NCBI GenBank assembly: GCA_030248215.1
Contig: JASANG010001204.1
Coordinates: 62,001-126,000, forward strand
Direction of reading: 5' to 3'
DNA: 64,000 nucleotides
Origin: Enoplolaimus lenunculus
Taxonomy: Eukaryota
The notes under the pieces are model-generated. The model was given only the letters and a program-made list of their open reading frames with translations. It searched no databases and was not told where the DNA came from. Positions 25,867-63,112 of the stretch are shown one piece after another (position 1 is the first letter of the stretch; every line of letters begins with the position of its first letter). The position numbers were made by a program, and so were the translations under genes.

Positions 25867-25870
25867 AGAT

Positions 25871-28013: not shown

Positions 28014-29389
28014 CTAATCCACAGACTGTTCGTTTTCCAGTTGTTCGATAATACTTTCCTCAATCAATCGTACTTCATCATCTGCACAACATTTAGATCT
28101 GTTTTCGGCTGGAAAAACGCCCAATATAACGGCACTTTCCAAATCGAGTCTTACGTGCGCAGTAGGCGAAGCGGGACTCTGGCGACCGTTCGAGTTCTGT
28201 AGTCTACGCCAGCCTTTGTCGTCCGCTGGTCCAGATTCCAAAACGTCACTACTTATCTCTTCATGAAAATGGAATTGTACATTTGTCATTTGTTTTGTAT
28301 CTTTAGAAATAGTTTCCACAGCAGTGTTTGTGCATTCCATTCGCCTCTCATCAACGTGTTCAGACTGCTTCAAAAAGGCGCCGTTATTTTCCCTCGTATT
28401 AGATTTCTGTTCCATTTTCTGCTCTTCATCGTCGCCCGTCATTCCCTTACCGTGTTCTGACTCGCTATCTAAAATCAAAACCTCATCAGAACCACTCGAT
28501 CCCGATGTATGAATTCTGCGTTTGTTTTCTTCATCCAAGATTCCGGTGTCACCGCAGATATTGGTATCTCCGTCACAGCTACTTGGTTCCTCATAACAGT
28601 GCCACTCATCGGGCGTTTGCCGGTTATTGGCATCATTAGCATCTTGCTCCAGACTCGGACTTCTGGTAACAGATCGACTACTCAAAATTTCAGCTGAGCC
28701 TGGCGTTGGCAATCGCTCGCTACTGTAGTCACTGCGTCTGCGATATCTGCGATCTACTAGCCGTTCTGTGACGCAAGAAGGCGATACTTGTCGATCAGAT
28801 CCACTGTTTCGACAGGAAAGAGATCGGAGCCCTTTGGTCGCAGACAACGATCGACGTCCGGACGATTTTGAGCCACTGCTGCTCGAGTCACGTGATCGGC
28901 CGCTTCGATCTCGTGACCCAATCTGCTGATCACGTAATTTAGGTTGGCGATCACGCGATGCAAAGTGTCGATCCCGTGATGCACGTGGTCGATCACTTAG
29001 TCCACCTTGTCGATCACGCGATCGACGTCTACGTCGACTTACCAATCGACAGCGATCAGTTGGCTGATCATTCCATTGACAGAATCGACCACTGCTTACT
29101 TGAGATCGCGACCGGCTTCGACTCCTACTTGCACATCTGACAGTTACAGATACGGAGCGCACCTCAGAGGAATTGCGCGAACGTCTTTGGTCTGGACTTA
29201 CTGATTCTGGTTGATTACTACTAGAGCGGCTACACGAGGCGACCGATGAGACTACAGACTGATCACGAGACTGCCTTGCAGCCTCGAAGCCGGTGACACT
29301 TCCAACACTGCACATATCATCATCACTAATGACAACAACGGGTAAGTTTTGAGCGTCTGTCCTAGGCTTCTTTGTTTTTCTTTTGCGAC
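28014..29389 (-). CDS. Zinc-finger gene terminal coding exon (basic NLS-like stretch, VVVISDDD, RS/SRDR repeats, acidic tail)
   Basis: TTTATAG acceptor in phase 1 matches the 30655 donor; contains the 433-aa ORF; stop at 28014. Confidence 0.8.
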
Positions 29390-32300
29390 CTATAAAGAAG
29401 ACGGCTGAACAGGTGCAACATTAAGCACAGACTTGGTGTATAGTGGCAGAAAGACCACTGAAACGACTAGCTTAGCAAAAGTCACAGCATAAATGAGGTA
29501 AATAGTTAAATTAGTCAAGAACAAATTAGGACTTTTTAAACAATTTTACGGTTTATTAGTATTATAACAAGCATTCAAATTCAGTGCTAAAGGGTTTTTG
29601 GGTGCGAGAATCGGAATAAATTGTTTATAAAGCTTCAAGACCGATAAGTAAATATTTAGCTAATAGCTAATATGTATATTAGCTTAACTGTTAAGCATAA
29701 ATTAACACTTTTTAAATTATTTCACTGATTACTAGAGTTACTGAAGTGTTTCTGGGTGCGACCAATCCGAGTAAACTGTTTATAAACCTCCATAACTGAT
29801 AACTGAGTACATAGCTAATAGCTAATTCGCATATTAGCTTAACTAGTTAAGCTTAAATTGCAAGATTTTAAATGATTTCATTATTATTATTAGAGTGACA
29901 AGCAATAAAATTCAGTACTAAAAGGTGTTCGGGTGCGAGCAATCGAAATAAATTGTTCATAAACCTTCAAGGCCGACAATTAAATAGTTAGCTAACAGCA
30001 AATTTGCATATTAGTTTAGCTGATAAGCCTAATTAAAACTTTTTAATATATTTCACTGATTATTACGGTTACTGAATGGTTCCTGGGTGCGAGCAATCTG
30101 AATAAATTGTTTAGAAACCTCCAAAACCGTTAAATGAAGACTTAGCTAATAGCTAACTTGCATATTAATTTAATTAGTTAAGCCTAAATTAGTACTTTTT
30201 AAATTATCACTAAAGAGTTATTGGGAGCGAAAAATCTAAATACATTGTTTATAAACCTCCAAAACCGATCAATGAACAGTTGGCTAATAACTATGTTGCG
30301 CATTAGAGTTGTTGGAAAGTAATTGAATCAAAATATCCGTTTGTGCTTTATAAATTTGGAATGCTTAACTATTCGATTAAAAACTAAGTATGTCAGAGCT
30401 TTACTAAATACAATACTTTCAGTGTAAAGCACACTTAAACCTCGGCCGTGTACCGATGAGTAGCATCAACGCGAACCATTCTAAATCATACATGAATCAG
30501 TCAAGAGCAGTCAAATCGGGAACGAAATGCTGTGTATACAGCTGATTTTAAGAAGCCAATACGAAAAAATTCATTTCCAAGTTACAAAAATATAAGACTC
30601 ACCACCCTTGAAAAAACTCTGAGACCACCGGTGGCATCAGCAAGTCATATTTACCTTTTCTTATGAATCTATGTTTATTATAGCACAATCGATGAAGTCT
30701 CCATGAAAATGAAACACCGCCACATGTTTCACATGTGAAATGTTCGAGTACTTGATCGTCCGCATTTTCCGTATTTCTTGCTGCGTTAAAACTATCAGAT
30801 AGTGTAAAATGGCTTTCTTGAATGTGGTCCCGCATATTCTCCCATACACTAAAATTAATAGCATCTTTCTTCCAAGAGCGCTACTAGCAAAGTTTTGGAG
30901 GTTGACGCCCTGTTGTGCTTTTGGGTCTAAGGGTTTTAGAAACTTTTATAGTTAAAAGCGCAAGAAACCCCACTTGAAAATTTTTTTACAGTTATTCCAT
31001 GCAAATTAGTTTAGGCAAAAATTTATATGGTAACAATTTATTGCAAAACTTGAAGTTGTTTGTTCGTGACCAACTTATTTTCTAACAAAATAGGACAAAA
31101 CAATGCAAATTACGGCAATACAGCAACCAAAATAACGAATAATTAATGCCGATTTGAAAGAGCACGAAGTATCTTTAAATTAAATAAAGGGTCTTACCCG
31201 AATTCTAACGGGCAATCGAAGTCAAAACACAAATATCTTTCGTCATTTCCGTGTTCTTTTCTAAGGTGCAGCAGACATTCCTGCAACAACCCAGATGAAC
31301 ACAACAAAATTACGGTTTCGCATATCTACAACTCTACAAGTAAGTTTTTATAATCTCAGAGAAAGTTTCAATTCAATCTAGACTGTTCACTATTTAGAGA
31401 CATCAGAAAAACTCAGCAGTAATATACATACGTACATAAATTACCTATTCAGACGCACCGCGATCTTACCGCCAGCTCAATTTACTCAAGCATGTATGTA
31501 ATCAACTACGAAAAATACCCAAGTTGAGCTGGATACTTCAATATTTGGTAGTGGCATTTTCCAAAGCCAGAGCAGGAAAAACAAAACAAAAAGTACAACT
31601 CGATCGCATTAATTCAGTACCCATTATTTGTTGCAATCTTGTTCATATAAGGGGTTTGCTGTTAACTGTGTTACCCTTGTTATTTTTCTCAGAAATAATG
31701 GTTTAATATAGAAATGAGCCGGATACCAAATTTTTGCCGAAACCAATATCCAGTTATATCTTTATTTTAACTAATAAACTCAGCAACTAGTAAGTATGCT
31801 CACAAAATCACATTATATTGTCAGAATATTACATTATAAGAAAATGGCGCTAGAAAACAATAAATGTTTTTATGCACCGTATTTCTCATACCATCAAAAT
31901 GTCAAAGAGGTATGCTTAGTACCTTGAAATCGAAATTAGCAACAACTAAAATCAGTTATTTAAAAAATTTTAGAACAGAACATACCTTCAACTCCATAAA
32001 CGTATTCTCACATCCTTCTGGTTGCATTTTACACGGGAACGGAAATGTATCAGTATGGTTTTGCAGTTCGTGGTGGACTATAGAGTTGGCAACAGACACA
32101 GCTTCCGCTAAAGGAGCAACAAAGCTTGCTGAACAGTAGGAGCACAGAATCTGAAATAATAAAATACATTACGATAATGAGTAATTGTGCTCTGTGCCCG
32201 TATCAATATTTTAGTGATAAGTATAAGTACAGTAACCAATAGTAGTTTTTAAATACCCGCTTTGTGAAGCCAAAATTCGACAACTATTTGAAAATATTGT

Positions 32301-35300
32301 CCAAAAAAGACATTAAACTTTCCACAACATATACCATTTGCGCGGTTAAGCGACATGTGTTGTTCTAACACCAAATTTCAGAAATACTAGCGAAAGACCT
32401 TCGCGACCATTATTTTATACACTACATTCCACGTATCATACTGCATGTTTTTCTGATATTTTACGCCTCACTTTACGTTTAAACGATCATTTTCAAACAA
32501 TGTTATTTTAGATGTTCTAGTTTTCATCTGATCATCAAATTGCAACTTGCAAGCTCGTGTAAACGAAAAAAATCGTGTTGGTTTTACCACTCAAAAAATA
32601 ACAAAACAAAAACATTTGGAATTTGAAATTCCCGCTCCGAAAAGAAATTGAATTCCCACTGAAATTATGTCTAAATTTTATTCCGGTTGAAACCCTGGCA
32701 CCTACCTTTATCACATCGTCAAAGGTATCATTCTTCCCAGATATAACATTCAAGTTTCCCATTTTTTTCCGGCTAGCAGCGCCAGGTCGAGATTTTAGCA
32801 CGCCGCCAGTCGTTACCGTCGCATAATTAGACAGTGCCCTATTTTCCGCAACCGATTTCCGCGTCAAATCCGGTGGTTTAACTACATAGCTGGCCACATC
32901 CGAGGCAGTGGCTTCGTGTTGAGAAACAGACATACCCGGTGGCAAGACAAACTCTGCTGCAGTTACAGGTGCATAACAATTCGGCGGTGGGAATTGCAAA
33001 CTGGAAACCATTTCCGGGGAAAGAAGAGGATTTTTATTGGAATTGCCATCATCAAGCCCTGGACATGAAGTATACAATCTTGTGACGCCAAGCATATAAC
33101 CAAACCCCCCGCTAGCAATCGTTGAACTTGGAATGAAGTCAGTTTCATCAGAATGACGATAAGGAACTGTCACAGACCCTCCAAGCTGCTTGGAAACCTC
33201 GCTTGCATATTGAAGGGTCACATGCGGTCTTATCTTTGAATAAGCCGGGTTGCACATACCTTCTGTGTAAATATTAGTCTGCCATCGTGTCAAAAATTTT
33301 GGCACATTTTGGGGCATTAATGATATGATAGGTGGACTGCATCCGTTTGCGACGTGACGCTTCCATTCTTCTGCTGTAATGTACATCCCATTGCAGTTGC
33401 TACATAAATACTGATGATGAATTTTGTGAGAATAGTAACAGAATCGTGCTCCCCGCCATGAGCCAAACGGACCTGAAGTAATACATGACAATAAAATGTT
33501 CAAAATATCAATAGCCACTCAATTCTAATATAATGATTCCATTTGACGATTTAATATTCGCAAGTTTGTTAAGCGTAATTTACGCCAGGTTTAACATCGG
33601 GCACCAATATGTTAGTCTACGCACAGGGAGTGCGCAAAGAGCTGAAACATAAAGTTTAAGAAATAAATATACACTACTAAATTGGGATACAGCAACTATT
33701 TTTAGTAATGTGCGTGGTTGCCAAACCTTCAACGTACACAGATAACTTTACAATTTTAAAACTTACCACAAACTAAAGCAATATTGTGTATATATTGCTC
33801 TTACTTTTGCACTGTTCGCAACGAAACAAAGGAAAATTATGCGACTTCTCACAATGACAAGCCCAAAAATGAGCAACGAGTCGAGCAAAACCAGTATCCG
33901 TTTCTTTGCAACTCTATAATTACAAAATGCAGTATAGGCTATGCTATAAGCAAGCGGTGAAAAAAAACAGAAAACTTTGAAACGTATTCATTGTAGCTTA
34001 CAACTAATGCCTATGAACCATATTCACAAGTCATAACTCATAAAGCAAGCTAACCACAACATTCATAAGTAAGAAAATTCATTCAGAGGTGGTTATCATC
34101 AGCTAAAAAAGCATTCAAGCTTTAACCTTGTAGAAACCAAATTACAAAATAAGTACTGAATTGACGTGATTACGTTTAATTTTTTGTCAAAATATGCATT
34201 TAAATATCCGGTTCTAGCGAGTATCTCTGGTACCCGGTTAATTCAAAGAATACGGCCACATAACTTATGTGGGCATAATCGGACAGTGATGGCTAGTATT
34301 ACTTTTAGAAAAATACCCGCGTTCTCTCGGCATCATCTTTATTTAATGTATTTAATTCAATGGTGCAAAGTTTGAAGCCAAACTGTGAGTCGATACCTCA
34401 ACTGGACATCGGTACATCTTAATTCCATCCGAGGAATTCATCGAATGCTTTAGTCGAATATGTTCAAGAATATCATCAATTGACAGAAACGAAGCGTTTT
34501 CTGGTGTGCATCCAAAATGACACCGATAAATCTCGGGCCGCGACATTGGATGTGCAGATATTTCATGTTCCACCACCGAACACACTTTGCTTTCCGCCAG
34601 AGTCCACGAAAATTGACCGAAACAATGCGCACACACCACCTGTGTTAATGAATATTGCAAACAGAAGTTTAAACTTTGGTGGGTAATTAAACCAAATAAA
34701 AACATAAACGGGTCATTTTTGTCTGAACTATGGATAATCTGCAAAATCTAACCACCACTTAATTATTGAGACAAGGTGAGCCAAATGCACAACGCGCGCT
34801 GGGTATACTATGCAAAGCCTTTAACCAAAAGTTTTGTGAAAATGTTCCATGTATGTCTGCGTAAACATCAACATAAATAAAATTATAAGCATGCTAGTCT
34901 AGCGTCATCCCCTATCATTCTAAAAAAAAACGAGCGACTACGTCGTCGTTTGAAAAAAAACTAAGGAACACCAAATTACTTGCAATATACGCCTTTCAAC
35001 AACCCCATTTTTCAGGGACTTAGGCTGTCCGGGGTCATGCATCATGTTTTTGTGCACATTGCAAACGAAATACTTTAGCCAAGTAACAACAAGCAACAGA
35101 TGTTTTCGTTACCTGGATAATTTTCACCCTTAGTATGGGCTACACTTTAAAACAAAATGACTTTCTCCGTGCCCATAACCATTTGAAGAGACCCATAAAC
35201 ATCAGCATTTAGTAACTTTTTTACGCATACAACACCAATCCAAAACCAACACTGAACGGAACTTCAAAGACATTCATTAACCTTTGCCGGCTCATCAGGT

Positions 35301-38300
35301 ACAGAAGCGCCATCCAGTGACGTAACCGGGTGTGTTACATCAATATGGCGTATCAACGTTTCAAAATCGTCAAATACCGTCTGACCAAAAAGCGCCGCCC
35401 TGGGCTCTTTGACTCGTTCCCGCAATTGGCGACGTTCGACAAATCCAATGATTTGAGCTAGCGTCAAATCTACACCTCCAAACCGGTATTCGATTTGATC
35501 ACAGTATTCATCATTGATCGCGGTTGCTTGCGATTGAGTTATCGGTAAATCGAGAGCAATTTCAGGCGATGACTGTACACAAAACGGACAGGTGTATTTC
35601 CCTCAAAATATTCCAAATGAGGAAAATATTAAATCAACACATTTATACAACTTAAAGTTATACTCATATGAAAAATAACTAACTTTAAAAAGTCATGACA
35701 GCTCAACTAAGAACGAGCAAAACACAATTGAATTGTGTTAAAACAGATCAAAGAAATAAGAAAGACGATGCATTTGGAACATTTTCTTTCAACCAAAATG
35801 GAAAGAACAAAAGTTTTGAAGTTCAGTCCTTGCATAGGAAAGAGACACCTTTTCAGCTTGGTCCTTGTCCATTCTATTGCTGATCATATTATATACAAAT
35901 GTTACATAAGCTTGTCAAAACTTACAAGTGGTTCTATCTAGCACATTCATGTGTTCAGACAAATAATGTTCTTTAAGCTTCCGTCGTCCAGTGATAGATT
36001 TTGTGCACACAGGACACTCGTGTTCTCGGCACTTATCGCTCGCTTTGTGCGTTCCATATTCCGCGTTTGGTACAATGTTATTACACGCCATACATCGGGT
36101 TGTCTCAGCCGGAATGAGTGTGTTTTTCGCAGCGGCCATGGCCAATTCTGCGTCACGATGTTTGGCACTACAAATGAAATGGCTTTTAACCATAGCTTGC
36201 ATGCAATGATATACCAGGGCGTCGCGACGGAATTTATAGGTCAACCCTCATTTTAAAATTTTTAATAAGGTTTTAGAAACTATTTCAGTTACCCTAGAAC
36301 GTATTCTGCTTTAACCCAGATCATACATTAACAACATAACGTCAACGAAACCATATATAAATAGATATCAGTCAAAACTCGAAAGAGACCTCGAGATACT
36401 TAGACACAATTGGTCCTTTACGCAGTCTCTGCAAACTAGAATACCTAAATTAATATCTTAATGACTCTACTATAAACCTATTCAGTTTCTTTATATTATT
36501 CTCAATTTTATTTAACGTATATGATCTATATACTCTATGACGAACTGCGCTATGAACCGAACATCTAGTTAAGAAGTGTTCTATAGATTCTTCTCCCATG
36601 ACCTACAACAAACCTACAATTGAAGCGCTGTTCGGAAGAAAGTATTTCCTACTACACCAATCATAGGCGACCACAATCAGTGCCTACGGCAAAAGAAAGC
36701 GTTAATACGCTCGACATACTACGAAATTTGAAGGAAACTAGAAGTGAAATCTAACGCTAAAATACTTAGTCACTGAAATATCATAATGTTTTGTAAAATA
36801 GCCATTTCCTATACATCAGTTCAGAATTTACATTGCTAGATATTTAGAATAAGCTAGGCAATATAAACAAAGAACTCATACTAACAGCACGATCCTATAC
36901 CAAGTGCTACGCCTCGTCGAAACTTGGCCACGACGAACTTACGCTGACAAACGATGAATATATCGTTTATCGACTTCAGGCAAAGCCAAATAATATGTTG
37001 CATGTTCAACTTGTTCATCTGTGAGCGTATGATTGAACGCACGATGATGTTCCCACAGGTTCCAGATACCTGTGAAGGGCAGAGTGCACACCCGAGTTGA
37101 CGACGATACGAGATTACACGCATGCTGGCAAATGTACACTTCAATCAATGATTCTTCCACCCTAAAATGTGTTCTGTTCCTTGCATCTAGCTTAACACAA
37201 AATTAGTTAAATCAAATTACGTACTGTTGCTGTGGTTTAACCAAGCCTCAGGAACAGTTATTATATTCTACACTCGAATTGCTTGATAACGCTAAATGAT
37301 AAGACTATCTGCAATACTATTGTTTTTTTACGTTTCGAAACAATTTTTTTAATATTCATAACTTCGAAATCTATGTAAAATATAATATTGACCACCATGA
37401 CAACATACAATAAAGCCCTATTTTGCAGCAAAACTTGCACATGCAACTTGCATGTGCAAGCTTGGTCATAAAACAACTTTGATGTTCTTGCAGCTGCAAA
37501 AAATTGACTGGAATAGATGCTATTGAATTTAATTCGCAAAAGTGAACTCAATTGTAAGTTACAGGAATTTCCTGCACCTTCATTTGGATTGACCAGTTGG
37601 AAATTCGGCGAGGTTGACTGGACTAGTTCTGCATCTACTGAGCATTAAACAAGGCTTTGAAAATGGTTCCAAGTCAAAGAATTTCGAGTAAAGCCTACTT
37701 TGCGCAAGATTGTTTCTAGCAGCTAAGACTTGTAAATGCACGATTTGTTCGAAAATTCATTCGGAGAACTTGCAGCTGCAAAGATTCATGATGAATATGC
37801 GTGCAGAATTAATTAATATGCATGAATAGCCTTGCACATGGATTGAAAATATATACGCTACGCTTGATATTTATTGCCGTCTTATGTAAATTGTTGTATA
37901 AATTCACGTCAATATTCAGAACGAAAATTATGTTTCCTTGCAAATACTTGCAGGTGCACTAATTCGTGCAAGTTGCAGCTGCGAGTACTCGTTGCAAAAA
38001 TCTGCACGTGTGAACAGCATTTAAACCAAATAACGTGTAATTGCATTAGTTTCAAAGTAACATAATACGTATATTATGGCTGATGTTGATTAACATGCTA
38101 TGGCATGACCAAAAAGTCAAAATACAACAGGAAGTCTGAATCCGGTGCCTACCCGGCTTGACAGAAATGTAAAAATTATTGCTAAAATTAGAGAACGATT
38201 TTTACATGACTTTAGCTACCTAATTTCATATCAATGGCAGGTCCTGACACATTTTGCTGACCTACGGCTCCGGTATTTCTTACCCAGGGTTGCGCCTTGC

Positions 38301-41300: not shown

Positions 41301-43659
41301 TTTATTGGATTACAATAACACTGGAAAACCTGAGAAAGATGACCACGGTTAGTTTAAGGGCATAATAGTATATATCTCAGCATATTCTTACTGCTAACAT
41401 TACAATAAAACCAGCGGGAAGAAAAATTGTTAGCTACGTCCGTATGTTCTGATCCTTGAATGCCCTCAAGTATCAGTTTTGAATTAATTATCCGGTTCCG
41501 GCCGGATATTATCCGATTCTTGCATTTTTTGACTTAATTCGCGTAGCAAAACGTCATTTAGAAACTTGAAAACCAGTTACTATACCTTACATTACTTTAC
41601 CGTGCAAAGAAACATAACAAACAAATGCGTATTTAAGACGTTTACTTACTGCCATCAGTCAATCCGTTCGAGCTTGTATTGTCGGGCAAGCGAAGAAGCC
41701 CGCTGAAACAATAACATTTACCTTTATAAAAACCAATGTGCAACTGGATATCATGCTGCGGCAGATGAGAAAACCAAGGTCAGATACTTAACTGCATATT
41801 TCGACAAAAAATATATATGAACGTATTTATAGTGATTTGCATAATGTCCAACAATTTCTTACAATTTTGCTTTTACAAGAGTATTTTGGCCAAAAACACT
41901 ACGAAATATTGCTGTTGTGATCATAAATAAAATATACCATAAATATGGTTACGTTTTACTTTTTTGCCATAGAAAACTGGGCCAAGAGAAGTTGAAAGTG
42001 TTCTCCCACTACATATAAAGTAGCCACCAGAAACAAAAAACAAAACAACATTGTTAGCGTACCCTCGTCTCAAGCTTCCTTCAATTGCACCAAAAGGCAT
42101 TCTATTAATATCACTATAACGTACTGCTGTGCTAGTTTCGCCAAGGTAAGCTGATCTGAAAATCAGTTTAAAAGTTTCACATATGGTTCTTGACGCAAGC
42201 ACATTTCGAAAATCACAATATTTTCAAATTAGAAATTACAAATTAATATTTTACCAAATATTACTTTTATTTAAAGAAAAACCTCAATACAATTGTTTGT
42301 AAGCTTAACAAGCAGCCCCTAAACGGGTCAGAGCGACGGGGTGAGTAAATTTTGTGTAAATTGGTTTAACAATAAGAATGAATAAGGAACAAGAGGCAGA
42401 TAGTACTATGTAATCTGAACCAGAAAGGCAATTCACGTCCCTCTCAATTTCGGGACCACCTTCCAAATACGGACCGACACCTTAACCAGTTCAACCAAAA
42501 ATTAACGCAGTTTGGAAATGCGCCTGACATATGGTTGGTTTCGCTCAGGCTCCTTATTATCAAAAAATTTCTCGCTCCCCAAATTTTTCTAAAATTATAC
42601 TTTAACGAACCCGAAATGAAGCATTCACACAATTGACAAAAACAGAAACCCGGGAAGAACTCGAACCACAGATCCCGCGCCGATAACCCTTGTATCTCTC
42701 TACGATTGGGTCCCACCATTAAACGTAGGGAAGCCCACACCCCTTTCTGCTTCTGCACTGCATGTAGCTGTGATTTTATACGCGGAAGATAATTGCGAAA
42801 ATCAGAAATCAAACAGTTTTGTTTTACTACTGAAGCAGCATTGCTTTGCAAGCCAAAATTCAGACCGGCCCATAATTTATTATCTGAGGCAACCACATAA
42901 CCCACTGAGCCACTGTGGCTGCTGAAATTATTAAATTGCTGCGTCGTTTTAAAATACTTATAATATCCCTCTAGTAGTAAAATGTATTGGTATGTGTGGA
43001 CTGAAGCCACTCATTTTCTCCATGGAAGTCGAAAATAGGATTTCAAAAATCCAGGGAGAAGCTGGATTAAAACTGGGGGTGCTATTCCTCAGGATCAAAA
43101 TTGTGAACTCCAATTTTGTACTAAGAATCGTAAAAAGAAATTTGTATTCCAGATAGTTATGTTTGAATCCGGAACAAATGCCACTCGACCAGATATTAAG
43201 GATCTCAAAAATGTCACTAATTCTGAACCAAGTACCCGACCAACATAGTACTTTTGAAACAGATGGCCTCCAGGCCGTCTCAAAATTAGGATCAGTCGAG
43301 ATATTACACCTTTTTCATATACGCAGCTGGAAAAAACAGGCGTGCATAGTTTTCAAACTTACGTTAAAACCACAGATCGTAAAGTGACTTGAACACAAAA
43401 CTACATTTATCGTCGACTACACGTCGACTCGTGGGCTATCGGCAAGCATAAAAAACCTGCTTAAAATGTTATGTTCCACTAAAATATATACTTAACTACC
43501 GGTTTCAGGTAAGTTAAAAATCTGCTATACTTCGACTTGCCTTGAAGGTACATAATCTGGATATGTTCCTAATCTTGACTCGTACAACGACGAAACCTCG
43601 TCAATTTCAAACAAGCTGCGCAACTTGCGCTTTCGACCAAACCCGTCATTCTGCTGCAT
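28014..43659 (-). CDS. Multi-exon C2H2 zinc-finger protein gene with SIM-like motifs and RS-rich C-terminus (gene span)
   Basis: Exons 43659-43541, 41702-41650, 41065-40683, 40296-40011, 39659-39273, 38567-38363, 37161-36943, about 36246-35926, 35601-35282, 34639-34397, 33913-33805, 33472-32706, 32150-31986, 31280-31198, 30848-30655 and 29389-28014. Splice phases agree except the 36943->36246 junction, which is unresolved. Repeated CxxC...HxxxH motifs. Confidence 0.8.
29500..30310 (-). repeat. Degenerate tandem array (about 5 x 160-180 bp), inverse of the 20730-21230 repeat
   Basis: Recurring GGGTGCGAGCAATCnGAATAAATTGTT and TAGCTAATAGCTAA..GCATATTAG blocks. Confidence 0.75.
30655..30848 (-). 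CDS. Zinc-finger gene exon
   Basis: VWENMRDHIQESH...FTCETCGGVSFSWRLHRLCYNKH; AG/GT bounded, phases consistent. Confidence 0.75.
31198..31280 (-). CDS. Zinc-finger gene exon
   Basis: ECLLHLRKEHGNDERYLCFDFDCPLEF; TTGCAG acceptor and GTAAGA donor. Confidence 0.75.
31986..32150 (-). CDS. Zinc-finger gene exon
   Basis: ILCSYC...IVHHELQNHTDTFPFPCKMQPEGCENTF; TTTCAG acceptor and GTATG donor. Confidence 0.8.
32706..33472 (-). CDS. Zinc-finger gene exon
   Basis: Lies within the 327-aa ORF; YLCSNCNGMYITAEEWKRHVANGC; CTTCAG acceptor and GTAGGT donor. Confidence 0.8.
33805..33913 (-). CDS. Zinc-finger gene exon
   Basis: SCKETDTGFARLVAHFWACH...FRCEQCK; phases match both neighbours. Confidence 0.75.
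34397..34639 (-). CDS. Zinc-finger gene exon
   Basis: VVCAHC...EHEISAH...YRCHFGC...FLSIDDILEHIRLKH. Confidence 0.8.
35282..35601 (-). CDS. Zinc-finger gene exon
   Basis: WKYTCPFC...VFDDFETLIRHIDVTH; phase 1 in, phase 0 out. Confidence 0.7.
35926..36246 (-). CDS. Zinc-finger gene exon (5' boundary uncertain)
   Basis: HECPVCTKSITGRRKLKEHYLSEH is a canonical C2H2 finger; GTAAGT donor. Confidence 0.75.
36943..37161 (-). CDS. Zinc-finger gene exon
   Basis: VYICQHAC...CTLPFTGIWNLWEHHRAFNH; TTTTAG acceptor and GTAAGT donor. Confidence 0.7.
37412..38013. mobile_element. TIR-type repeat rich in TTGCA/TGCAA motifs
   Basis: Inverted homolog at about 51850-52152; ends resemble AAGCCCTATT / GTGTGAATAGGGCTT. 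Confidence 0.5.
38363..38567 (-). CDS. Zinc-finger gene exon
   Basis: HSGSFIKADTTY...WYELASWNDRTNEYDF; TTTAG acceptor and GTGAGT donor. Confidence 0.7.
39273..39659 (-). CDS. Zinc-finger gene exon
   Basis: GDKSAEEILVNIAKLL...; phase 1 in and out. Confidence 0.7.
40011..40296 (-). CDS. Zinc-finger gene exon
   Basis: MRNSYVSK...AKDALNG; TTTTAAG acceptor and GTAAGT donor. Confidence 0.7.
40683..41065 (-). CDS. Zinc-finger gene exon
   Basis: LMKNNVVENN...AAKKAVQ; phases match both neighbours. Confidence 0.7.
41650..41702 (-). CDS. Zinc-finger gene small exon
   Basis: GTTTCAG acceptor and GTAAGT donor; 53 nt; GLLRLPDNTSSNGLTDG. Confidence 0.65.
43541..43659 (-). CDS. Zinc-finger gene probable first coding exon (GC donor)
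   Basis: TTTACAG|A-ATG start, MQQNDGFGRKRKLRSLFEIDEV...; ends AAG|GCAAGT in phase 2, matching the next exon. Confidence 0.6.
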
Positions 43660-43797
43660 TCTGTAAAGCCGTTTTGCTGCGTAAATTAAAGTGCAAACAC
43701 AAGATATTTAAACTGCAATCTGAAATAAACGGCCAATATAATTCACACATCAGTTTGCAGCTACAGTTTGGTGAAAGCAACTATTTTAGATCGACGG

Positions 43798-44051
43798 CGT
43801 AAGCATGTGAGACATGCTTGCCCGTTATGTGCACATGCAATATAGTGCAGGGCACTGTATATATGCTAGCTGGCAGCATACGGTGGACACATAGTCGACG
43901 AAAAATGCAGTTGGAGAGGCGGGCTAAGTGGCGCAATGGTAGAGTGCTCGCTTAAGGATCCATAGGCTGAGAGTTCGATTCCTGCTCTAGCCCGCTTTTC
44001 CAGCTGCTTGGTAGAAAGGTCTGATGTCCTTGGTTCCTACCTAGACTGACA
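43798..44051 (+). repeat. 5' LTR (254 bp)
   Basis: CGTAAGCATG...CTAGACTGACA; direct repeat of the split 3' LTR. Confidence 0.9.
43922..43993 (+). ncRNA. tRNA-like (Pro-resembling) Pol III unit within the 5' LTR; not a functional decoding tRNA
   Basis: 72 nt; A box TGGCGCAATGG 43929-43939; B box GTTCGATTCC 43973-43982; acceptor-like GGCTA/TAGCC; TTTT at 43996-43999; anticodon and T stems are broken. Confidence 0.75.
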
Positions 44052-44065
44052 TGGGGGCTACTCCG
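44052..44065 (+). promoter_or_regulatory. Primer-binding site, tRNA-Pro type
   Basis: TGGGGGCTACTCCG immediately follows the LTR's terminal CA; TGGGGGC is complementary to the GCCC-CCA 3' end of eukaryotic tRNA-Pro. Confidence 0.75.
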
Positions 44066-44145
44066 TGGACGCAATGGCAAATTGACGCGCTATGAGCATG
44101 GTATCCAGTCGAAAATAGGATGGACGGTCAAGGGACGACCTTGCT

Positions 44146-44158
44146 GAAAATAAGGGCA
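44146..44158 (+). promoter_or_regulatory. Polypurine tract
   Basis: GAAAATAAGGGCA directly precedes the 3' LTR's TGT. Confidence 0.6.
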
Positions 44159-44250
44159 TGTAAGCATGTGAGACATGCTTGCCCGTTATGTGCACATGCA
44201 ATATAGTGCAGTGCACTGTATGTATGCTAGCTGGCAGCATACGGTGGACA

Positions 44251-45854
44251 ATTTCTATATGTTGAAACACTATGCCACTGAGTTCGCTTCTCATCTCGCC
44301 CTTATTTTTCAGTTATCATTTGATTCTGGTACCTTGCCGGCTGACTGGTTGCTAGCCGACGTGGTCCCAGTATATAAAAAAAAGGTTCTTGTAGCCTAGT
44401 TTCCAATTATCGTCCCATTTCCTTGACCAGTGCATGCTGTAAGGTTATGGAAAGCATTGTTAAAGATAAAATGCTAGAGTTTTTGAACAATAACAATCTG
44501 TTTACAAAAAACCAGTATGGTTTTCTGCCTAAAAGATCCACCTGTAGTCAGTTGATCCAGACAACCCACAGTCTAGCACTTTTTCTAAACAATAGTAGCT
44601 ACATGGGGGCGGATGTTATATATAGACTATGCCAAAGCATTTGACACTGTGAATCATAGAAAGCTTTTGATAAAACTTTCCTCATGTGGGCTTAGAGGTT
44701 CAGTCTTGCGTTGAATAAACGCGTTTCTTCAAAATCGTACTCGGCGGGTTAAAAACGGCGACTGCTATTCTACACGCGGGCCGGTTACTTCTGGGTTCCC
44801 GCAAGGTTCTGTATTGGGTCCTATGTTATTTTTAGTTTATATCATTGATATTCTTGATCTTTTACATGATGTACATGTTGAGATGTACGCAGACGATTGA
44901 AACTATATGTAGGAATTACTAGGTCTGACCCGCTGAAATCTCGGAGCACACTACAAAATGCGTTGGATATCGTTCATGATTATGCTAAGACGTGGCAATT
45001 AAAAATTGCCGTGAATAAATGCAAAGTTGTGCATTTTGGCTGCGCTAACGAACCTTTGAATGTTCGCTACTGTATTGACAGCGAGGTCCTTGCCAGCGTA
45101 AATGAGGTAAATGATCTTGGAGTTATTTTCGAGCGTTCATTGAAATTTTCTAGGCACTGTGATTATATAGCTCATAAATGCTTCCCGTCTTTCTCACTAT
45201 CCCAGTATATATCTGCGTATAAATCATGTTATTCCAATATTGGATTATTGTTCAAATGTATGGAACCCTGTTTTGCTGTTTGATATTGACAAAATTGAGA
45301 AAGTACAGCGCTATTTTACTAGAAGACTCTTTCAAATTTAAATTAGGAGACAAAACATACCGTTCTAGGCTAGGGGAACTTGAGCTTGAAACGTTAGAAA
45401 ATCGCGGACTAAAGTCCGATTTAGCCATGTTGTATAAGCTTATTTTTAAGGAACTTGATCCGCATATTGATAGCTGTTTGCAGTTTTCTGGAACTTCTCG
45501 CACCAGGAAAAACGACCTTAGCTTGAATTTTCCGAAGTTCTTTAATTTAGCTGGTCGTGGTTCGTTCTTCTATCGTGTTGTATCCTCCTGGAATAGCCTA
45601 CCTAACAATATAAATGGGCTCCCGGTTCCCCGAGCAGGTTCTCTTGCCCAGTTTCTTCGACGACTTCCTCGCGACGCACTTAAAAAATTTTTGAAGTATG
45701 ACCGCCATGAACAGTTAACCTTATAGATCGATTTCGGTTGGATGTTAGAGAGGTTTGCCCCTCCTTTCCAACTTATTTTATTTGCCTATTCATATTCGTA
45801 TCTTAAATACGTATGTATGTTTAATCGGTGAATAAACTTTTGACTTTGACTTTG
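44251..45854 (+). mobile_element. 5'-truncated, degenerate CR1-clade LINE (RT pseudogene) inserted in the TRIM 3' LTR
   Basis: RT motifs across frameshifts: VVPVYKK, NYRPISLTSACCKVME, QYGF, DYAKAFDTV, GFPQGSVLGPMLF, MYADD, DLGVIF and C-terminal FFYRVVSSWNSLP. Ends AATAAA plus (CTTTGA)n; no TSD. Confidence 0.9.
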
Positions 45855-45886
45855 CATAGTCGACGAAAAATGCAGTTGGAGAGGCG

Positions 45887-45958
45887 GGCTACGTGGCGCA
45901 GTGGTAGAGTGCTCGCTTAAGGATCCATAGGCTGAGAGTTCGATTCCTGCTCTAGCCT
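45887..45958 (+). ncRNA. tRNA-like Pol III unit within the 3' LTR
   Basis: Copy of 43922-43993 with A box TGGCGCAGTGG and B box GTTCGATTCC; 3 substitutions. Confidence 0.75.
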
Positions 45959-47916
45959 GCTTTTCCAGCTGCTTGGTAGAAAGGTCTGATGTCCTTGGTT
46001 CCTACCTAGACTGACAGACGGGTGTCGAATTTTATGTTCCAGCATTTCAACGTAATAAAAAGGTGCTTGAGTGGTAAAACTGGTCATGTAATCTCCGTTA
46101 CAAATTTCGAAACCAAAAGTCGAACCAAAACTTGGGATAACTGAAAGTCACAAATCAGAAAGTAAGTTATATTATTTCTAACGCGAAATAATCTACTTTC
46201 AGTCCCGCGAAATACTTTGCTTTCAGTCCTAAACGAAGGTATCATTCTTAACACTAGCTACGTAGTTTCCAGCATTGGTACACCTGAAGTTGCGCGTGTT
46301 TGTACATAATATTTTCAAAGTTGCATACGTGTGCACGCATACCACTTAAAATTGCAATACATTAGCGTAGTATAATGTGCAGCGGGCTTGACTTGACAAC
46401 GAGCCGTCCAGGGTTTGAGAACAGTTACAATTCACGGTTCTGGTGAAAACCTAAAGAAGGGGCCAGATGCAAAGAAAACCTATACAAACTCGTTTAATAC
46501 GTTTTAGGGTACTGTGTTTATTTAGTCTAGACTAAAAATAAGCTGTTTTAGGCTTAGGAATATGCTTATACTATTGTTGTGGCCCGGTTCTATACATTGA
46601 CCATAAACTGTAATAAAAGCAGTGAAGTATAATCGGTAGCGCACTTGATTCGCGAGATAGAATTCCAATGTGCGATTTTGGGCGGGATATATTTTTGAGA
46701 GAATTTTTGCAGACCAACTGCCCGCACCAACGTCCGAGGGCCTAAACGGGCCGGCCCTTACTTGTGCCTAACCTTTGACCCGCGAGCCAAGATAAAAACG
46801 GAGCAGTGCGTGACCTCTTTTTGTCCCATGAGCCCATTAAATAGACTGCTGCTTTATATTCTAAATGTACTTTTGAATCTTAATTACTTTCAATTTTTAT
46901 ATACACTGCGGTTGGGACGTAGAAAGGACTTTGAAAGTAGTATTAATACGTTCTACAAAATTACGAAGGAGAGTTTCTTTCAATTCCTGAATCGCACGCA
47001 ATCCTTTACACCTATGCGATTGTAAAAATATCAATAGTCCACTGTATAAGCGGACTTGATGGATATCTAGAATCTTTCATGTGCCGTTGGAACGATTGCG
47101 GCTCTGAAGGAAGCTGCACTGAACAATATTTAGCGAAATATAAAAAATAGTGTTATGTACCCGAATAAGACTAGGGGGGGCTGGTATTTATATATTTAGC
47201 CTTTCCAGAGGGCACCAAACCCGCCCTTTATACTGGGTAAAATTGTCCATAATTTTTGAAAATTTATCTGTTTAGCGCGTTTCGTTTTACTTTTGTCACA
47301 ATTTTCAGGAAAGAACTTCCGAAATTTCGCAGAAAATTATTGTAAAACTAAACTACTTAAGAACATATTGCAGTTGTTGGCTAAAATTAACCAATTAACC
47401 GTCATGATTTTAAAAAGTAGAGCTACGTTCCAGAAAATTTTTTGAAGAGTTTTTCGAGTTTCTAAATCGCAAACATTTGCGTTCGTTGGTCTTCTAGAAT
47501 CCCGAACTGCAGACGTTTCTGCTGTTACTTCAAGAAATCCGTTAATTACTGACGTGAACACACAGTGTGATTTCTATTGTTATTGAAACTCGCTAGGCGC
47601 ATGCTCGGTGTATATACTAGCCAGTACGGGCGAATCTGAGCTACATTTTACTGAAGGTGGTAATGTGTCATCCGCGTAATAGTGCGCGAACTACTATAAA
47701 AATTGTCCAGGTCTGGGTAAGGACCAATGTCATTTTTAAGAACTCTAGCAAAGATGTTATCTTAGAATTAGTCTCTTTGCAGAGTCCAAGGACAACGCAA
47801 ACATTTTGCATACAGGGTCTCCGGCCATGAACAGTTGAGTGGAGTCCCAAAATCTCACCGTCCCAACTAAAAAATTGATACTTTTTGTTTGTGGTGGGAT
47901 TTGGGGATGGTATTCC

Positions 47917-48735
47917 TTAGGCTTAGGCTTAGGCTTAGATTTAGGATCGTCCAATATTTTGGCTCAAGATTTAGGTTTAGGAATATGCAACGCTCCGTCT
48001 TAGGCTTAGGTATTTAGCTGTTTATCCGTAACATCTGGTGTAAAGCTTAGATATACATTTTAGCGACGCCTTAGCCTTAGGCGTAGGCTTTGTCTTTACT
48101 CTATGGCTGAGGCTTAGGCCTACGCTTTAGGCATAGTTTTAGGACGCTGAGGCTCTAGGAATTGGTTTAAACGTAGATTAAATAATAAATGACCATTACG
48201 GGCTAAGTATAAGGGTCTTACGTATAGAACAGGGCCGGATCGTTTTCCGTAGGAGCTATAATAGTGTCTGTTTAAGCTTTAGATAATTTTTTTCTTAGGC
48301 TTAGGCTTAGGCTTAGGCTTAGGAATATGCTTATACTGCTGTTCTGGCCCTGTTCTATACATGGACCATCTTAGGCATAGGCTTACGCTTACGCTTAGGC
48401 TTTCGCTTAAGTTTACGCTTAGGCTTTAGGAGCAGGCTTTGTTTAAGCATAGATTTAGACCACAGATAGCATTGGCTTAGGCTTAAGCCGAGGCTTTATG
48501 AATTGTTTTTAAACAAACAAAGAATAGATCTTAAATAACTCTTGGACTAAATCTTAGGCTTAGGCTTAGGCTCATGCGGGGTTCACGTTAATTAAATATT
48601 AAAATAACCCTTGGGCTAAATCTTATGCTTAGGACCAGGCTTAGGCTTAGGCTTACAGTTAGCCTTGGGTTTTGACTTAAGTTTAGGCTTAGGCTAAGCC
48701 TTGGGCACAGGTCTAGGCTCCGGTTTAGGCTTATG
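47917..48735 (+). repeat. Degenerate interstitial telomere-like (TTAGGC)n array with a nested MITE near 48215-48368
   Basis: Many exact and variant TTAGGC units; TATAGAACAGGGCC...GGCCCTGTTCTATACATGG inside. Confidence 0.85.
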
Positions 48736-50270: not shown

Positions 50271-50458
50271 GGCCCATGGATAGAGCAGGGCCGGATCGTT
50301 TTCCGAAGGGGCTATAATAGAGTCTTTAAGGTTTAGACTAATTTTTTGCTTAGGCTTAGGCTTAGGCATAGGAATAGGCTCATCCATACGCTTAGGCTTA
50401 GACTTAGTCTTAGCAATATGCTTATACAACTGTTCCGGCGCTGTTCTATACATGGGCC
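50271..50458. mobile_element. GGCC-ended TTAGGC MITE with perfect 9-bp TSD
   Basis: GGCCCATGGATAGAGCAGGGCCGGA...TCCGGCGCTGTTCTATACATGGGCC; CAATCACAG at 50262-50270 and 50459-50467. Confidence 0.8.
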
Positions 50459-51265: not shown

Positions 51266-51506
51266 AGGGTTGCGCTATACTCGACGTCTGGCGTCGTCCG
51301 CCACCGTGCGTCACCCGTACGGCACCGTCCGTCATTCATACGGCGCCGTCCGTCATCGTTCGTACCATACGTTATCGTACCTACGTGAGTTCTTGCGTAA
51401 GATACCGGACGGCGCCGTACTCGTGACGCACGGTGACGAACGGCGCCGTACGGCTGACGCACAGGACGGACGGCGCCGGACGTCAACAAAAATATAGCAC
51501 AACCCT
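51266..51506. mobile_element. GC-rich MITE with CGGCGCCGTAC-type internal repeats
   Basis: TIRs AGGGTTGCGCTATA / TATAGCACAACCCT. Confidence 0.65.
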
Positions 51507-53314: not shown

Positions 53315-57896
<4,582 letters not shown>

Positions 57897-58674
57897 CTAA
57901 GCCTGAGCGTAAGAATGAGCTTATACCTTTTAGCCTAAGCCTAAGAAAAAAGTTGCTCTAAAGCATAAGCTTCATTTATTGCAGTTCTGCAGTAAACCAC
58001 TCCGCCATTTGGCCGGAGTTCTCAAAACGTGAGGCCCTATCATTGTCCGCGCTCTCAAATGTGTGTAGCACCTATCACTTGGTGGTAGGTGTTGTAACTT
58101 TCGAACCAGTTGAACGCTGACACCTCAAAATACAGCACATTTCTCGCATATGATTTGCTCTATACTTGCTAGACACATTTGAGAATATGGGCCCTAATTA
58201 AACAATAACCTGTATTCAAATAGATTTGTTTCTAATTAAAGATAGTACTGATGCTAACTGTATGTAGAACAGTTCTTAAGCTGTATACTAGTCAATTGTG
58301 AACACGAGTTCTGCGCTAATAAACTGCGCTGAACGCTTGTTCCAAATTTTGTGTATGGTCGGTCGACCTCCATATCCTAAAATAATTAAAATCAAAAACG
58401 ACCTGATTAATTTCTTTTAACGATTACAGTTCATTTAGTGTTATACTTTCCAGCTGCATGCTGTAGGATTAACCTAAACAGATTTAATAATATCTATCAT
58501 CAATAGGCCAGGTGCTACAACTAACAGAGTAGATTATAACCATAATAGGTTGAGCTATTTTTCCATTCATTATGTCACAAGCTAAACGTTTGAGAATCCA
58601 ATTACAGATTAACAATCAAAGCAGTTGCACCTTTCTTAGATTTGGGATTGGACTTTTTGTAGGCTTAAAATCAG

Positions 58675-60143: not shown

Positions 60144-61742
60144 CTATATTTTACACCTACCGTCGAGCAGTATGTTGGTCAGAAGTTCGTTCATTGAACT
60201 GAAATGCAAGCGCTCATTGACTCCTACAGAAGCGTTTCTATACTCTTCTGATTTGTTTGTATTTTCCGACCACAACCCTGGTATATTCGAAGTTTGGTTT
60301 ATATCATCCCGGCACGATTCTGATTGGACGCCATCACCGCTCCAAGGTGAATGATCACGCGTTTCAGTTTCGCTATACTTTGTCGCTTGATCTTCGTTTA
60401 ACAGTTCACATTCGTTTTCGTCATATCGATCAAAATCTGACTTGTCACTATCAGTTTGGTCCCCATTCTCGTTGTTATACCGCTCATCGTTCATAGTTAT
60501 TGTTCCTGCTGTTTGTAATTCGTCTGCTGCACTTGAAACTTGCCGTTCATCAAATTCTTCAACTTGTCCAACGTATGGCGTTCGTTGATTCAAATATGGC
60601 CCATCACAATTTTCCGTCAGTTTCGCTAAAAGTTCCGTCAGTTGATTTTGTACTCCACGCAAGTTTGACGAAGTTAACGACGAGTTTTCGTCAGTGTCGT
60701 TCAATGAACGTTCAGTGTGTAGTGGTTCGTTTTCGTTGAAAGTGTGTTGAAGATTTGAAAGAAATGTGACCAATTGCATTTCAAGTGATGACTCTGCGGA
60801 TGTAGTTCCGGTTGTACGTGTCAGTTTATTTTGCTTTTGGGTATCGTTCAGCTTGATTGATTTAGACGTGATGCCTTGATCAACCGGAGACAACATTCGC
60901 TTCCTGTACCCTGAAGTAGAGTTGGTAAGATTCTTGGAATCTGGTAGTGATGAATTTGGAAACGATTTTTGCCGAGATGTAATACAGTATTCTGATTGGC
61001 TGTAACTGATGTTTGCATTGATGTCATCGCTATTATGTGGCGAATCAGTCTGTTCGATCTTTATTGGTGGATTTTGAGCACTGCCTGTAGCACAATCTAA
61101 AATGACTGCTGGTTGGCTGTTAATGTTCGTTGCCAGAGTGTCTTTTTGAATTTCAATGGGTTGATTGCTAGCATTACTGCTGAAATCAGATTCAACAGAT
61201 TTTAATTGGTCAAATGTGGCTCTTTCTGATAAAAACTGTTTGAATTGTATAGAATGCTTCATTTTCCAGTCGTCGTCGCTATGGTTTAATGTTGAAACGT
61301 TGCCGCCCAAACGTTTGCAAACTTCTTCTTCAGTATATTGTCTTGTGTCTCGTTTAATCTCAATCTCATGTTTATCTCGGCACGCAATATTCGAATTCTT
61401 GTTTAATGAAGTATACCAGGTACTGACCTCAAAATTCGAAATAGGTTCAGATTGATGGTGTATGCTTGAAGTAGGAATAGTGGAAGTTTTACAAACCGGC
61501 TTGTTATTAGGCACAACTGAAACACTACCACTTGTATCCTCTGTAAAAGAAACATCCTGAGCAACTGAATAAGGCATGTCTTGAGCATGTTGAATAGGCA
61601 CCGTATGAACGCGGGTAGAGCTTGAGTTGATGGGGAATAATTGGTGTTCAAACCTTTGACTGGTTTCATTTTTGCTGGTGTTTGGAGCAGAGGTAAAAGT
61701 ATTCCGTTTACGGTAACAGTTTGGCGATGATTTATGTCTCAT
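60144..61742 (-). CDS. 532-aa Ser/Thr/Asn/acidic low-complexity ORF; possible first exon of the AP-2 gene (donor at 60161) or a separate gene
   Basis: 1.6-kb stop-free frame in AT-rich DNA; GACG|GTAGGT donor in phase 1 matches the AP-2 acceptor phase. Confidence 0.65.
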   Translation of the reverse strand: MRHKSSPNCYRKRNTFTSAPNTSKNETSQRFEHQLFPINSSSTRVHTVPIQHAQDMPYSVAQDVSFTEDTSGSVSVVPNNKPVCKTSTIPTSSIHHQSEPISNFEVSTWYTSLNKNSNIACRDKHEIEIKRDTRQYTEEEVCKRLGGNVSTLNHSDDDWKMKHSIQFKQFLSERATFDQLKSVESDFSSNASNQPIEIQKDTLATNINSQPAVILDCATGSAQNPPIKIEQTDSPHNSDDINANISYSQSEYCITSRQKSFPNSSLPDSKNLTNSTSGYRKRMLSPVDQGITSKSIKLNDTQKQNKLTRTTGTTSAESSLEMQLVTFLSNLQHTFNENEPLHTERSLNDTDENSSLTSSNLRGVQNQLTELLAKLTENCDGPYLNQRTPYVGQVEEFDERQVSSAADELQTAGTITMNDERYNNENGDQTDSDKSDFDRYDENECELLNEDQATKYSETETRDHSPWSGDGVQSESCRDDINQTSNIPGLWSENTNKSEEYRNASVGVNERLHFSSMNELLTNILLDGRCKI

Positions 61743-62278
61743 TATATTAATTGGTGAGTATTTTCATTATATTCAGATTCACAGATTTCTCTGTAGGCCA
61801 ATTCTCAAATATAACGCAATTAAGAAGGAAGCATGCAGCTGTTTTTGCCACGATTCTGGTGCTACTTCATGCACGAACGAACTAATTACCTAAAACGCCT
61901 GTCGAAGCGGTTTAAATTAATTATGAACCTAATCATTTTCGCTTCCTAATTTTAGCAATCAAATTCGCAACAGTAATAAAAGAATATTCCCAAAGCCTAA
62001 GCGGAACAAAGAGCTTACACCCAAGCCTACGCAAAAAAGTTACTCTAAAGCTTAATGAGCTTACTCTATTGCAGTACCACAGAAAAACATTCCGCTCTTA
62101 ATCGTTGAATGGACCAGAACAACGGAGCCTTGTGTGGGTAATCGGATCATTGATCAATGTGGCGCCCAACATTGTATTTCAAAGTTATTACGTCAAAACT
62201 ATGACACGGATTCAACTTAAAATTATTTTCGTGATTAGAATTTTCCCATTTACACAATTCCAGACTCACAAGTCAAAC

Positions 62279-62476
62279 GGCCCATGTAAAGAACAGGGCC
62301 GGAACAGTAGTATAAGCATATTCCTAATCCTAATCCTAAGCCTGAGCCTAACACTAAGCGTAAGAATGAGCATATTCCTACGCCTAAGCCTAAGCAAAAA
62401 AAGTTAGTCTAAAGCTTAAACTGAGTCTATTACAAACCCGCCGGAAAGCGTTCCGGCCCTGTTCTATACATGGGCC
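62279..62476. mobile_element. GGCC-ended GCCTAA-containing MITE with 27-bp TIRs
   Basis: GGCCCATGTAAAGAACAGGGCCGGAAC / GTTCCGGCCCTGTTCTATACATGGGCC; flanks AGTCAAAC / AGCCAAAG. Confidence 0.8.
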
Positions 62477-62687
62477 AGCCAAAGCATACATCAAAACAGG
62501 TTGGAAATAATTTTCACAAAGAATAATTGATGAGGTTATATAACATCGCAATATCGTATTTGTTTTAATACCTGCTGGTATAAATGTTCAACCAATAAAT
62601 ACCCTTAATATGTATTTCGTCATTGCACTAAAATTCAACATGGCGAAATTTTGGAAGGCTGCAACATTCTAGCGATTCTATTTCTTA

Positions 62688-63112
62688 CTGTAGTGACCCG
62701 AATAAGCGTGGGAAGACTGATATTTATTTGACCTCTCCAGTGAATACCTCCCTGGTTGGTTACGGACTGTTATTAATATTTACCCGCCCTCCGCCACCCT
62801 TGGTTAGTGACATATACCCGGTATTGCAAGTATTTGTTGAATTAAACATGTATTTGTCTATCAAAAGTTTGAGTGATACTGCAAGGTTATACTTAGGAAT
62901 GTACTTTCAAAACTTAAGTATGCTTAAAGTTATGAACTCAAATTTATTTGGTCCTGGAGTCATTTATGCACTATAATTAAGGCTAAGTGACAAATATGGA
63001 CTCTAATTATGGTTTAGGGACTTTATCCGCTTACAGACTTCTGTTATTAGGGATGCTGATTCCTATTGATTCGGACTCAAAATGAGGACCCCTTTTATTC
63101 GGGTCACTGCAG
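62688..63112. mobile_element. TA-flanked MITE (CTGTAGTGACCCGAATAA family)
   Basis: TA-CTGTAGTGACCCGAATAA...TTATTCGGGTCACTGCAG-TA. Confidence 0.75.

Follow-up and report, generated by a model that had tools for sequence, protein, structure and literature searches.

What is the compact, repeat-bounded unit that lies between positions 43793 and 46021 of a 64-kb window of contig JASANG010001204.1 (the window being the whole stretch of 64,000 nucleotides analysed here), and how might it be transcribed and copied? A first-pass annotation, made from the letters, had read it as a miniature long terminal repeat (LTR) retrotransposon that carries a tRNA-derived promoter in each LTR and is interrupted by a long interspersed nuclear element (LINE). 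It appears quite probable from the present analysis that this is a non-coding, high-copy miniature retrotransposon with terminal repeats (TRIM) of the type named Helenus, transcribed by RNA polymerase III (Pol III) from a tRNA-like segment and copied by a Gypsy-type helper with host tRNA-Pro as primer. Its parts, including the target-site duplication (TSD) and the primer-binding site (PBS), are the following.

43793-43797, strand not applicable: left TSD, GACGG, identical to 46017-46021.
43798-44051, + strand: 5' LTR (LTR1), 254 bp, CGT..ACA, delimited by self-comparison, with a depth step and loose contig ends at its boundaries.
43799-43821, + strand, counterpart 44160-44182: 10-bp hairpin opening the LTR, in the predicted U3; -12.6 kcal/mol, z -4.27.
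43916-43998, + strand: predicted R region, closed by an 11-bp terminal stem, predicted to pair 43916-43926 with 43988-43998, that prolongs the acceptor stem into the T run.
43922-43993, + strand: tRNA-like segment of LTR1, 72 nt; Rfam RF00005, model 1-71 of 71, 21.7 bits, E 0.28.
43929-43939 and 43973-43981, + strand: A box and B box of LTR1.
43996-43999, + strand, counterpart 45961-45964 in LTR2: TTTT, candidate leaky Pol III terminator.
44052-44065, + strand: PBS of tRNA-Pro type, flush with the LTR end, with the register and start of the Cer1 PBS; a Pro-type PBS also appears in Fig. S2C of Kojima 2024.
44052-44158, + strand: internal region, 107 bp, non-coding, folding not above shuffles (z 0.46).
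44146-44156, + strand: purine tract, 10 of 11 letters purines, 2 nt upstream of the 3' LTR.
44159-44250, + strand: 3' LTR (LTR2), first part, 92 bp, starting TGT; 137, 144 and 86 contigs have unrelated flanks upstream of 44159.
44251-45854, + strand: decayed, 5'-truncated LINE with stops, frameshifts, AATAAA and a short hexamer-repeat tail.
45855-46016, + strand: 3' LTR, second part, 162 bp, ending ACA and containing the second tRNA-like segment and the second TTTT.
45887-45958, + strand: tRNA-like segment of LTR2; Rfam RF00005, model 1-71 of 71, 22.5 bits, E 0.18.
46017-46021, strand not applicable: right TSD, GACGG, identical to the left one.

With the LINE removed, self-comparison of the window reproduces the layout first proposed, GACGG / 254-bp LTR / 107-bp core / 254-bp LTR / GACGG, and gives a non-coding element of 254 + 107 + 254 = 615 bp. 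The two pieces of LTR2, 92 bp and 162 bp, are split by a 1,604-bp insert and jointly cover all 254 LTR positions with zero overlap. The LTRs are unlike at 6 of 254 sites (2.4%), the same figure as in the first-pass annotation, and the first base is one of the six; of the TGT..ACA termini claimed there, ACA is found at the end of both LTRs and TGT at the start of LTR2, but LTR1 starts CGT. The GACGG repeat is unlikely to be a chance TSD because random pairs of 5-mers from the window are identical at a rate of only 0.0014 (200,000 draws). This 5-bp duplication is seen in one copy of one, the contig tables described below being without both flanks of the other copies. The PBS and purine tract listed earlier were found as well: the PBS begins TGGGGGC at 44052, right after the LTR, with CCG at its positions 12-14, and the purine tract lies at 44146-44156. 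None of 200 shuffles was as stable as the hairpin that opens the LTR.

Some smaller observations concern the LTR upstream of its tRNA-like segment. LTR1 has TATATA near 43859, where LTR2 reads TGTATG. An older, inverted LTR relic lies at 43399-43450 on the - strand (75% identity over 52 nt, E 0.004) and corresponds to the stretch just upstream of the tRNA-like segment; it keeps two GTCGAC palindromes, as do most family copies, and this doubled motif may mark a conserved upstream element.

The evidence for other copies comes from a single study, whose contigs from three DNA runs were compared with a 2.8-kb region; 9,167, 5,666 and 3,593 contigs matched it. In all three runs the summed contig depth was 8-32 over the flanks, about 120-1,900 over the LINE and 1.6e4-3.2e5 over the element, an excess of the element over the flanks by thousands-fold that answers the question of multiplicity raised earlier: it is not single-copy. 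The core-to-flank depth ratio, 6,500-35,000, is not equal to a copy number, and the family copies likely number in the thousands. Unrelated sequence stands before the TGT at 44159 in 137, 144 and 86 contigs per run (agreement 0.35-0.37) and after the ACA at 44051 in 70, 65 and 43 (agreement 0.37-0.38), while 154, 128 and 106 contigs depart at 44029, repeat the LTR end shifted by one base and then diverge. The left junction of the present copy is spanned by contigs in all three runs; right-junction contigs reach only 28-29 letters into the LTR, below the 31-letter threshold, and no empty-site joint was present among the 15 joints listed, a further 312 lying beyond that listing. These results support a multi-copy interspersed family with fixed TG..CA ends and unrelated flanks, and with them the earlier view that it is a non-autonomous LTR element whose two LTRs both contain a tRNA-derived segment.

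At four positions (43821/44182, 43885/44246, 43980/45945 and 43983/45948) both LTRs share a letter that is carried by about 3% of the family depth in run X1, which fits a common template for both LTRs, although the same pattern could result from a local duplication. Subfamilies with the same LTR frame have other heads in place of this tRNA-like one (loose ends at 45906 and 43990-43991); one such head, met in 54 contigs of one run and 55 of another with an agreement of about 0.6, has an anticodon arm that is Val(GAC)-like and paired throughout. The differing heads suggest head exchange or repeated capture. An 18-nt LTR-end pattern was also met at two loci in metagenomes; the likeness is confined to those 18 nt and has been read as chance.

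The LINE was inserted later, into an already present right LTR. Two stretches of it match the Pfam family RVT_1, at 44378-44641 (E 9.5e-09) and 44715-44897 (E 6.7e-06), and from its motifs we take it to be of the CR1/L2 type. The copy is 5'-truncated, since a contig of its family continues for about 1.5 kb past the 5' end seen here. No target duplication was seen at the ends of the LINE (44251-45854), and the LINE family contigs start two bases inside the LTR (44249-44250), a 2-nt microhomology at the 5' junction. Because its left end is CG and the LINE splits its right LTR, the present copy of the element is likely dead.

The tRNA-shaped 72-nt segments that had been described in the two LTRs were found to align with the full Rfam tRNA model, with scores of 21.7 and 22.5 bits that both fall below the gathering score of 29. 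Each has an A box, TGGCG..TGG, and a B box, GTTCGATTC, at tRNA spacing, and a search of both strands of the window for the A-box-plus-B-box pattern gives two matches, these two. In the Rfam alignment the acceptor and D arms are partly paired, the T arm poorly so, and the anticodon arm is unpaired. The predicted 11-bp terminal stem occurs in both the minimum-free-energy and the centroid structure, while the segment as a whole is no more stable than its shuffled versions (z -1.31). A functional tRNA gene has been ruled out: ARAGORN calls no tRNA gene in the window, the anticodon arm is unpaired, and the fold z values are -1.31 and -0.93. Among the three Rfam matches up to E 1 there is none to 5S rRNA; one of them, to ES036 at 43828-43851 (21.9 bits against 37.6, E 0.43), has been dismissed as chance. 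The TTTT at 43996 is the sole sense-strand run of at least four T in the LTR plus core, and in the contig comparison no family variant at 10% of depth or more is listed for it. AATAAA is absent from both LTRs.

TRIMs with tRNA-derived sequence in their LTRs have been named Helenus and, together with Cassandra and Ajax, make up the TRIMp3 group (Kojima 2024, Biology 13:119, PMC10886601). The first-pass annotation had presented this element as an animal tRNA analogue of Cassandra, and the novelty which that phrase implied does not stand, the design being that of Helenus. Helenus elements of 311-1263 bp are known from rust and agaric fungi, the lycophyte Selaginella and six animal phyla, with reported animal lineages in wasp, fish, bivalve, brachiopod, nemertean and ctenophore, and their copy numbers reach thousands (5,575 LTRs for LTR-11_DR) (PMC10886601). 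On every feature examined the present element satisfies Kojima's definition: it is a TRIM of less than 1 kb with a tRNA-derived A/B-box segment in both LTRs, a non-functional cloverleaf, a PBS and a purine tract. It also has a high copy number, a T run after the tRNA-like part and a tRNA-Pro PBS like that of Helenus-1_TeGr. In that paper and its supplement (PMC10886601), animal Helenus PBSs resemble Gypsy PBSs, the bivalve Helenus-1_TeGr uses tRNA-Pro, wasp and bivalve consensus LTRs have a T run just past the tRNA-like part, and Helenus-1_SyJa has an A box nearly identical to the present one as well as an extended stem.

There are also differences. The present PBS abuts the LTR. The probable host is a nematode, a phylum missing from Table 1 and Table S1 of Kojima 2024 (PMC10886601). 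The TSD of the one copy is 5 bp, the length given for fungal and plant Helenus, as opposed to the 4 bp of every animal row with a determined value (two rows are n.d.) in Table S1 as available (PMC10886601). Because its one copy has this 5-bp TSD, the element is not placed among the reported animal lineages. Four motifs specific to it (ctagactgaca, tagcccgc, ggctacg and ctcgcttaagg) gave 0 matches in Kojima's supplement, in a motif look-up rather than a full alignment, and three others (tgtaagca, gtcgac and gcgcagtggta) gave 1, 6 and 2 matches, each either within the A box or in a different context. To judge from its sequence, the lineage is likely independent of the published Helenus. The string "nematod" has 0 matches in Kojima's text and supplement (PMC10886601), which bears out the earlier remark that no described nematode family was known, and no nematode TRIM with a tRNA head was found in the literature searched by title listing. 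The tRNA-in-LTR design is already published as Helenus, and the present family is a further example of it, probably the first from a roundworm; novelty has been judged against the literature, and a nematode entry may already exist in Repbase or Dfam.

As to the host, the window contains 81 occurrences of TTAGGC, 14 tandem runs of it and 0 tandem runs of TTAGGG; TTAGGC is the nematode telomere repeat. An AP-2 transcription factor gene (located below) has, in bits summed over four exons and among the 120 homologues listed, its best matches in Trichuris muris (368.5), one unnamed protein (368.4) and, as the best named arthropod, one of 356.3; the named matches among these 120 are from arthropods and Trichuris only, and the score margin is small.

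Related designs help to place the element. Like Cassandra of plants and Ajax of nemerteans, TRIMs with a 5S rRNA-derived LTR promoter, it carries in its LTR what would be a Pol III promoter derived from a small RNA, and like Ajax it would be an animal element with a 5-bp TSD; it differs in having tRNA rather than 5S rRNA sequence and a predicted terminal repeat of about 80 nt, against only 18 nt in the RNA of Cassandra (PMC10886601). With tRNA-derived short interspersed nuclear elements (SINE2) it shares internal A and B boxes, non-coding content and high copy number, but the SINE2 head is at the 5' end and is followed by a LINE-type tail, whereas here the head lies 124 nt inside a TG..CA LTR and a PBS and purine tract are present. 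In the accessible part of PMC3315495 the Caenorhabditis elegans Gypsy/Ty3 element Cer1 has a Pro-type PBS adjoining its 5' LTR; the first seven letters of the PBS, the CCG at positions 12-14, the adjacency to the LTR and a nematode host are common to both. Cer1, however, is autonomous and protein-coding, and the likeness described here is that of the PBS.

The preferred reading, a Helenus-type TRIM driven by Pol III, would work as follows. TFIIIC would bind the A box and the B box, and transcription by Pol III would start near 43916-43922. In uninterrupted copies some polymerases would get beyond the left-LTR TTTT and halt at its right-LTR counterpart, yielding an RNA of about 440 nt, and the remaining ones would stop at the left TTTT and yield about 80 nt; the tRNA-like segment would form the terminal repeat R of the full-length RNA. 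A Cer1-like Gypsy element would package this RNA, use host tRNA-Pro on the PBS, as well as the purine tract, for priming, and integrate the product with a 5-bp duplication. We infer the primer and the helper because the PBS matches that of Cer1 in its start, its adjacency to the LTR and its CCG; BEL may be an alternative helper. The window itself contains no LTR-element protein family as judged by Pfam (all 37 frames of at least 100 aa plus four LINE pieces). Elements of the Cer1/Mag group and BEL make 5-bp duplications, and no passage supporting this was found in the literature searched. That literature, including PMC2836005 as far as accessible, yielded no statement of the Cer1/Mag TSD length.

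The TTTT had been described as a stop. It is present after each tRNA-like segment, but it would not be a simple stop: as it stands in both LTRs, Pol III must read through the left copy to make full-length RNA. Terminator read-through is common in human cells, according to the portions available of bioRxiv 10.1101/2025.10.17.683076 and PMC5356446. Several points weigh against the reading proposed here. By those same sources, four T suffice to end Pol III transcription in human cells and are even optimal for it; if the human data apply, such efficiency would lower the yield of full-length RNA. An account of nematode Pol III terminator behaviour was not found in the literature searched. One letter in each box deviates from Kojima's motif (TRGCY, YGG, GGTTC), the B box having AGTTC where most Helenus have GGTTC and the fifth A-box letter being a non-pyrimidine. 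T-run depletion was considered as a sign of Pol III selection and dismissed, since one run per 361 nt is close to what base composition leads one to expect. The 5-bp TSD is known from one copy only, and the three DNA runs possibly include the window's own source and are not independent. Pol III transcription and the Gypsy helper are predictions from sequence, and the host tRNA-Pro primer is predicted from the PBS.

Leaky passage of the left TTTT is the weakest of the inferred steps, and because of it an ordinary TRIM transcribed by RNA polymerase II (Pol II), although unlikely, keeps a place among the explanations. In such an element the RNA would start in U3 and the tRNA or SINE copy would be a passenger, a TFIIIC-bound insulator or an RNA-processing signal. 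A TTTT just past the tRNA-like segment, at which Pol III transcripts would mostly stop while still in the left LTR, agrees with this, as do the TATATA of LTR1, the retention of the doubled GTCGAC in the diverged relic, and the fact that the Pol III promoter of Helenus is expected but without experimental validation (PMC10886601). On the other hand, the LTR is without AATAAA, the TATA-like site is altered to TGTATG in LTR2, and the A and B boxes have been retained in spite of lost pairing in the anticodon and T arms, which is the pattern that Kojima reports across Helenus, where the boxes persist and cloverleaf pairing is lost (PMC10886601).

It is decidedly improbable that the element primes itself, that is, that the short TTTT-ended RNA is trimmed, receives CCA and then acts on the element's own PBS as the primer of reverse transcription, with no need of a host tRNA. 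The final 6 nt of the LTR1 tRNA-like segment do complement PBS positions 4-9, making 9 bp with the CCA; GGCTACG, the 5' acceptor strand of LTR2, is identical to PBS positions 5-11 as most copies have them, with G at 44062 in 84-89% of depth; and the Val-like subfamily, represented by 24-40 contigs per run with an agreement of about 0.6, has an acceptor 3' strand nearer to the PBS. The C. elegans element Cer7 is said to encode its own primer. Yet the pairing goes no further than 9 bp, only 8 positions out of 15 being matched, and no variant of at least 10% in the acceptor 3' strand lengthens it; less than 10% of the family has the LTR2 letter at 45892, and the common acceptor 3' strand shows no corresponding change. 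The PBS continues, moreover, with CCG in the register of the Cer1 and Aplysia tRNA-Pro matches, in the sources as far as available, which points to true tRNA-Pro, and Kojima found no complementarity between head and PBS in any Helenus (PMC10886601). The head may nevertheless be descended from the same tRNA-Pro that serves as primer. Its anticodon arm is presumably tRNA-Pro-like. A nematode Helenus whose head came from its primer tRNA-Pro and whose leaky TTTT yields both genomic RNA and a short CCA-tailed self-primer would be the first self-priming TRIMp3 element, a combination that appears still more doubtful.

An origin without any LTR mechanism, as a dimeric SINE, a tandem duplication or a satellite unit, is hardly credible: one target duplication only has been seen, the left end is CG, the rare letters common to both repeats could stem from local duplication and the summed depths of core and LTR are similar in magnitude, as tandem arrays would give, but a tRNA-type primer site directly follows the first repeat and a purine tract precedes the second, many unrelated flanks begin exactly at TGT and at ACA, the repeat has its tRNA-like part 124 nt from its start rather than at its 5' end, and Tandem Repeats Finder shows no array at the element.

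If the host is indeed a nematode, the Helenus-type TRIM described here would add a seventh animal phylum and would mean that the tRNA-in-LTR design arose once more, likely independently, and its 5-bp duplication points to a helper other than that of the 4-bp animal lineages. An abundant family is good material for the question put by Kojima 2024 (PMC10886601), whether Helenus promoters recruit Pol III, and it raises one absent from that paper, by what means full-length RNA can be produced when both LTRs contain a terminator. For annotation, such copies inflate tRNA pseudogene counts. The class being already known, the gain is modest.

The rest of the window contains several further features. 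Weak C2H2-type zinc-finger matches occur in two frames at 35264-36247 (- strand), probably exons of one gene; the frames 32535-33518 and 28014-29420 (- strand) had no Pfam match, nor did a 539-aa open frame at 60144-61763 (- strand). A 17-bp tandem array of 26 copies occupies 56034-56475, in an intron of the AP-2 gene. A dispersed repeat of about 200 bp with TTAGGC-like runs occurs in both orientations, its copies 70-90% alike. These and other rows are listed here.

53315-57896, - strand: AP-2 transcription factor gene, with exons near 57567-57800, 56549-56674, 55374-55571 and 53666-53950 (Pfam).
3510-3703, 4749-4970, 9878-10068, 10994-11189, 46548-46604, 48222-48369, 50271-50458, 57186-57369 and 62276-62476: the TTAGGC-like repeat of about 200 bp.
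5657-6066, 16263-16637, 25482-25867, 58045-58417 and 62686-63099: dispersed repeat families, 370-420 bp.
20727-21195 and 29503-30305: repeat with a 155-175-bp unit.
2031-2235, 51266-51506 and 54652-54798: self-complementary stretches of 150-240 bp, like miniature inverted-repeat transposable elements.

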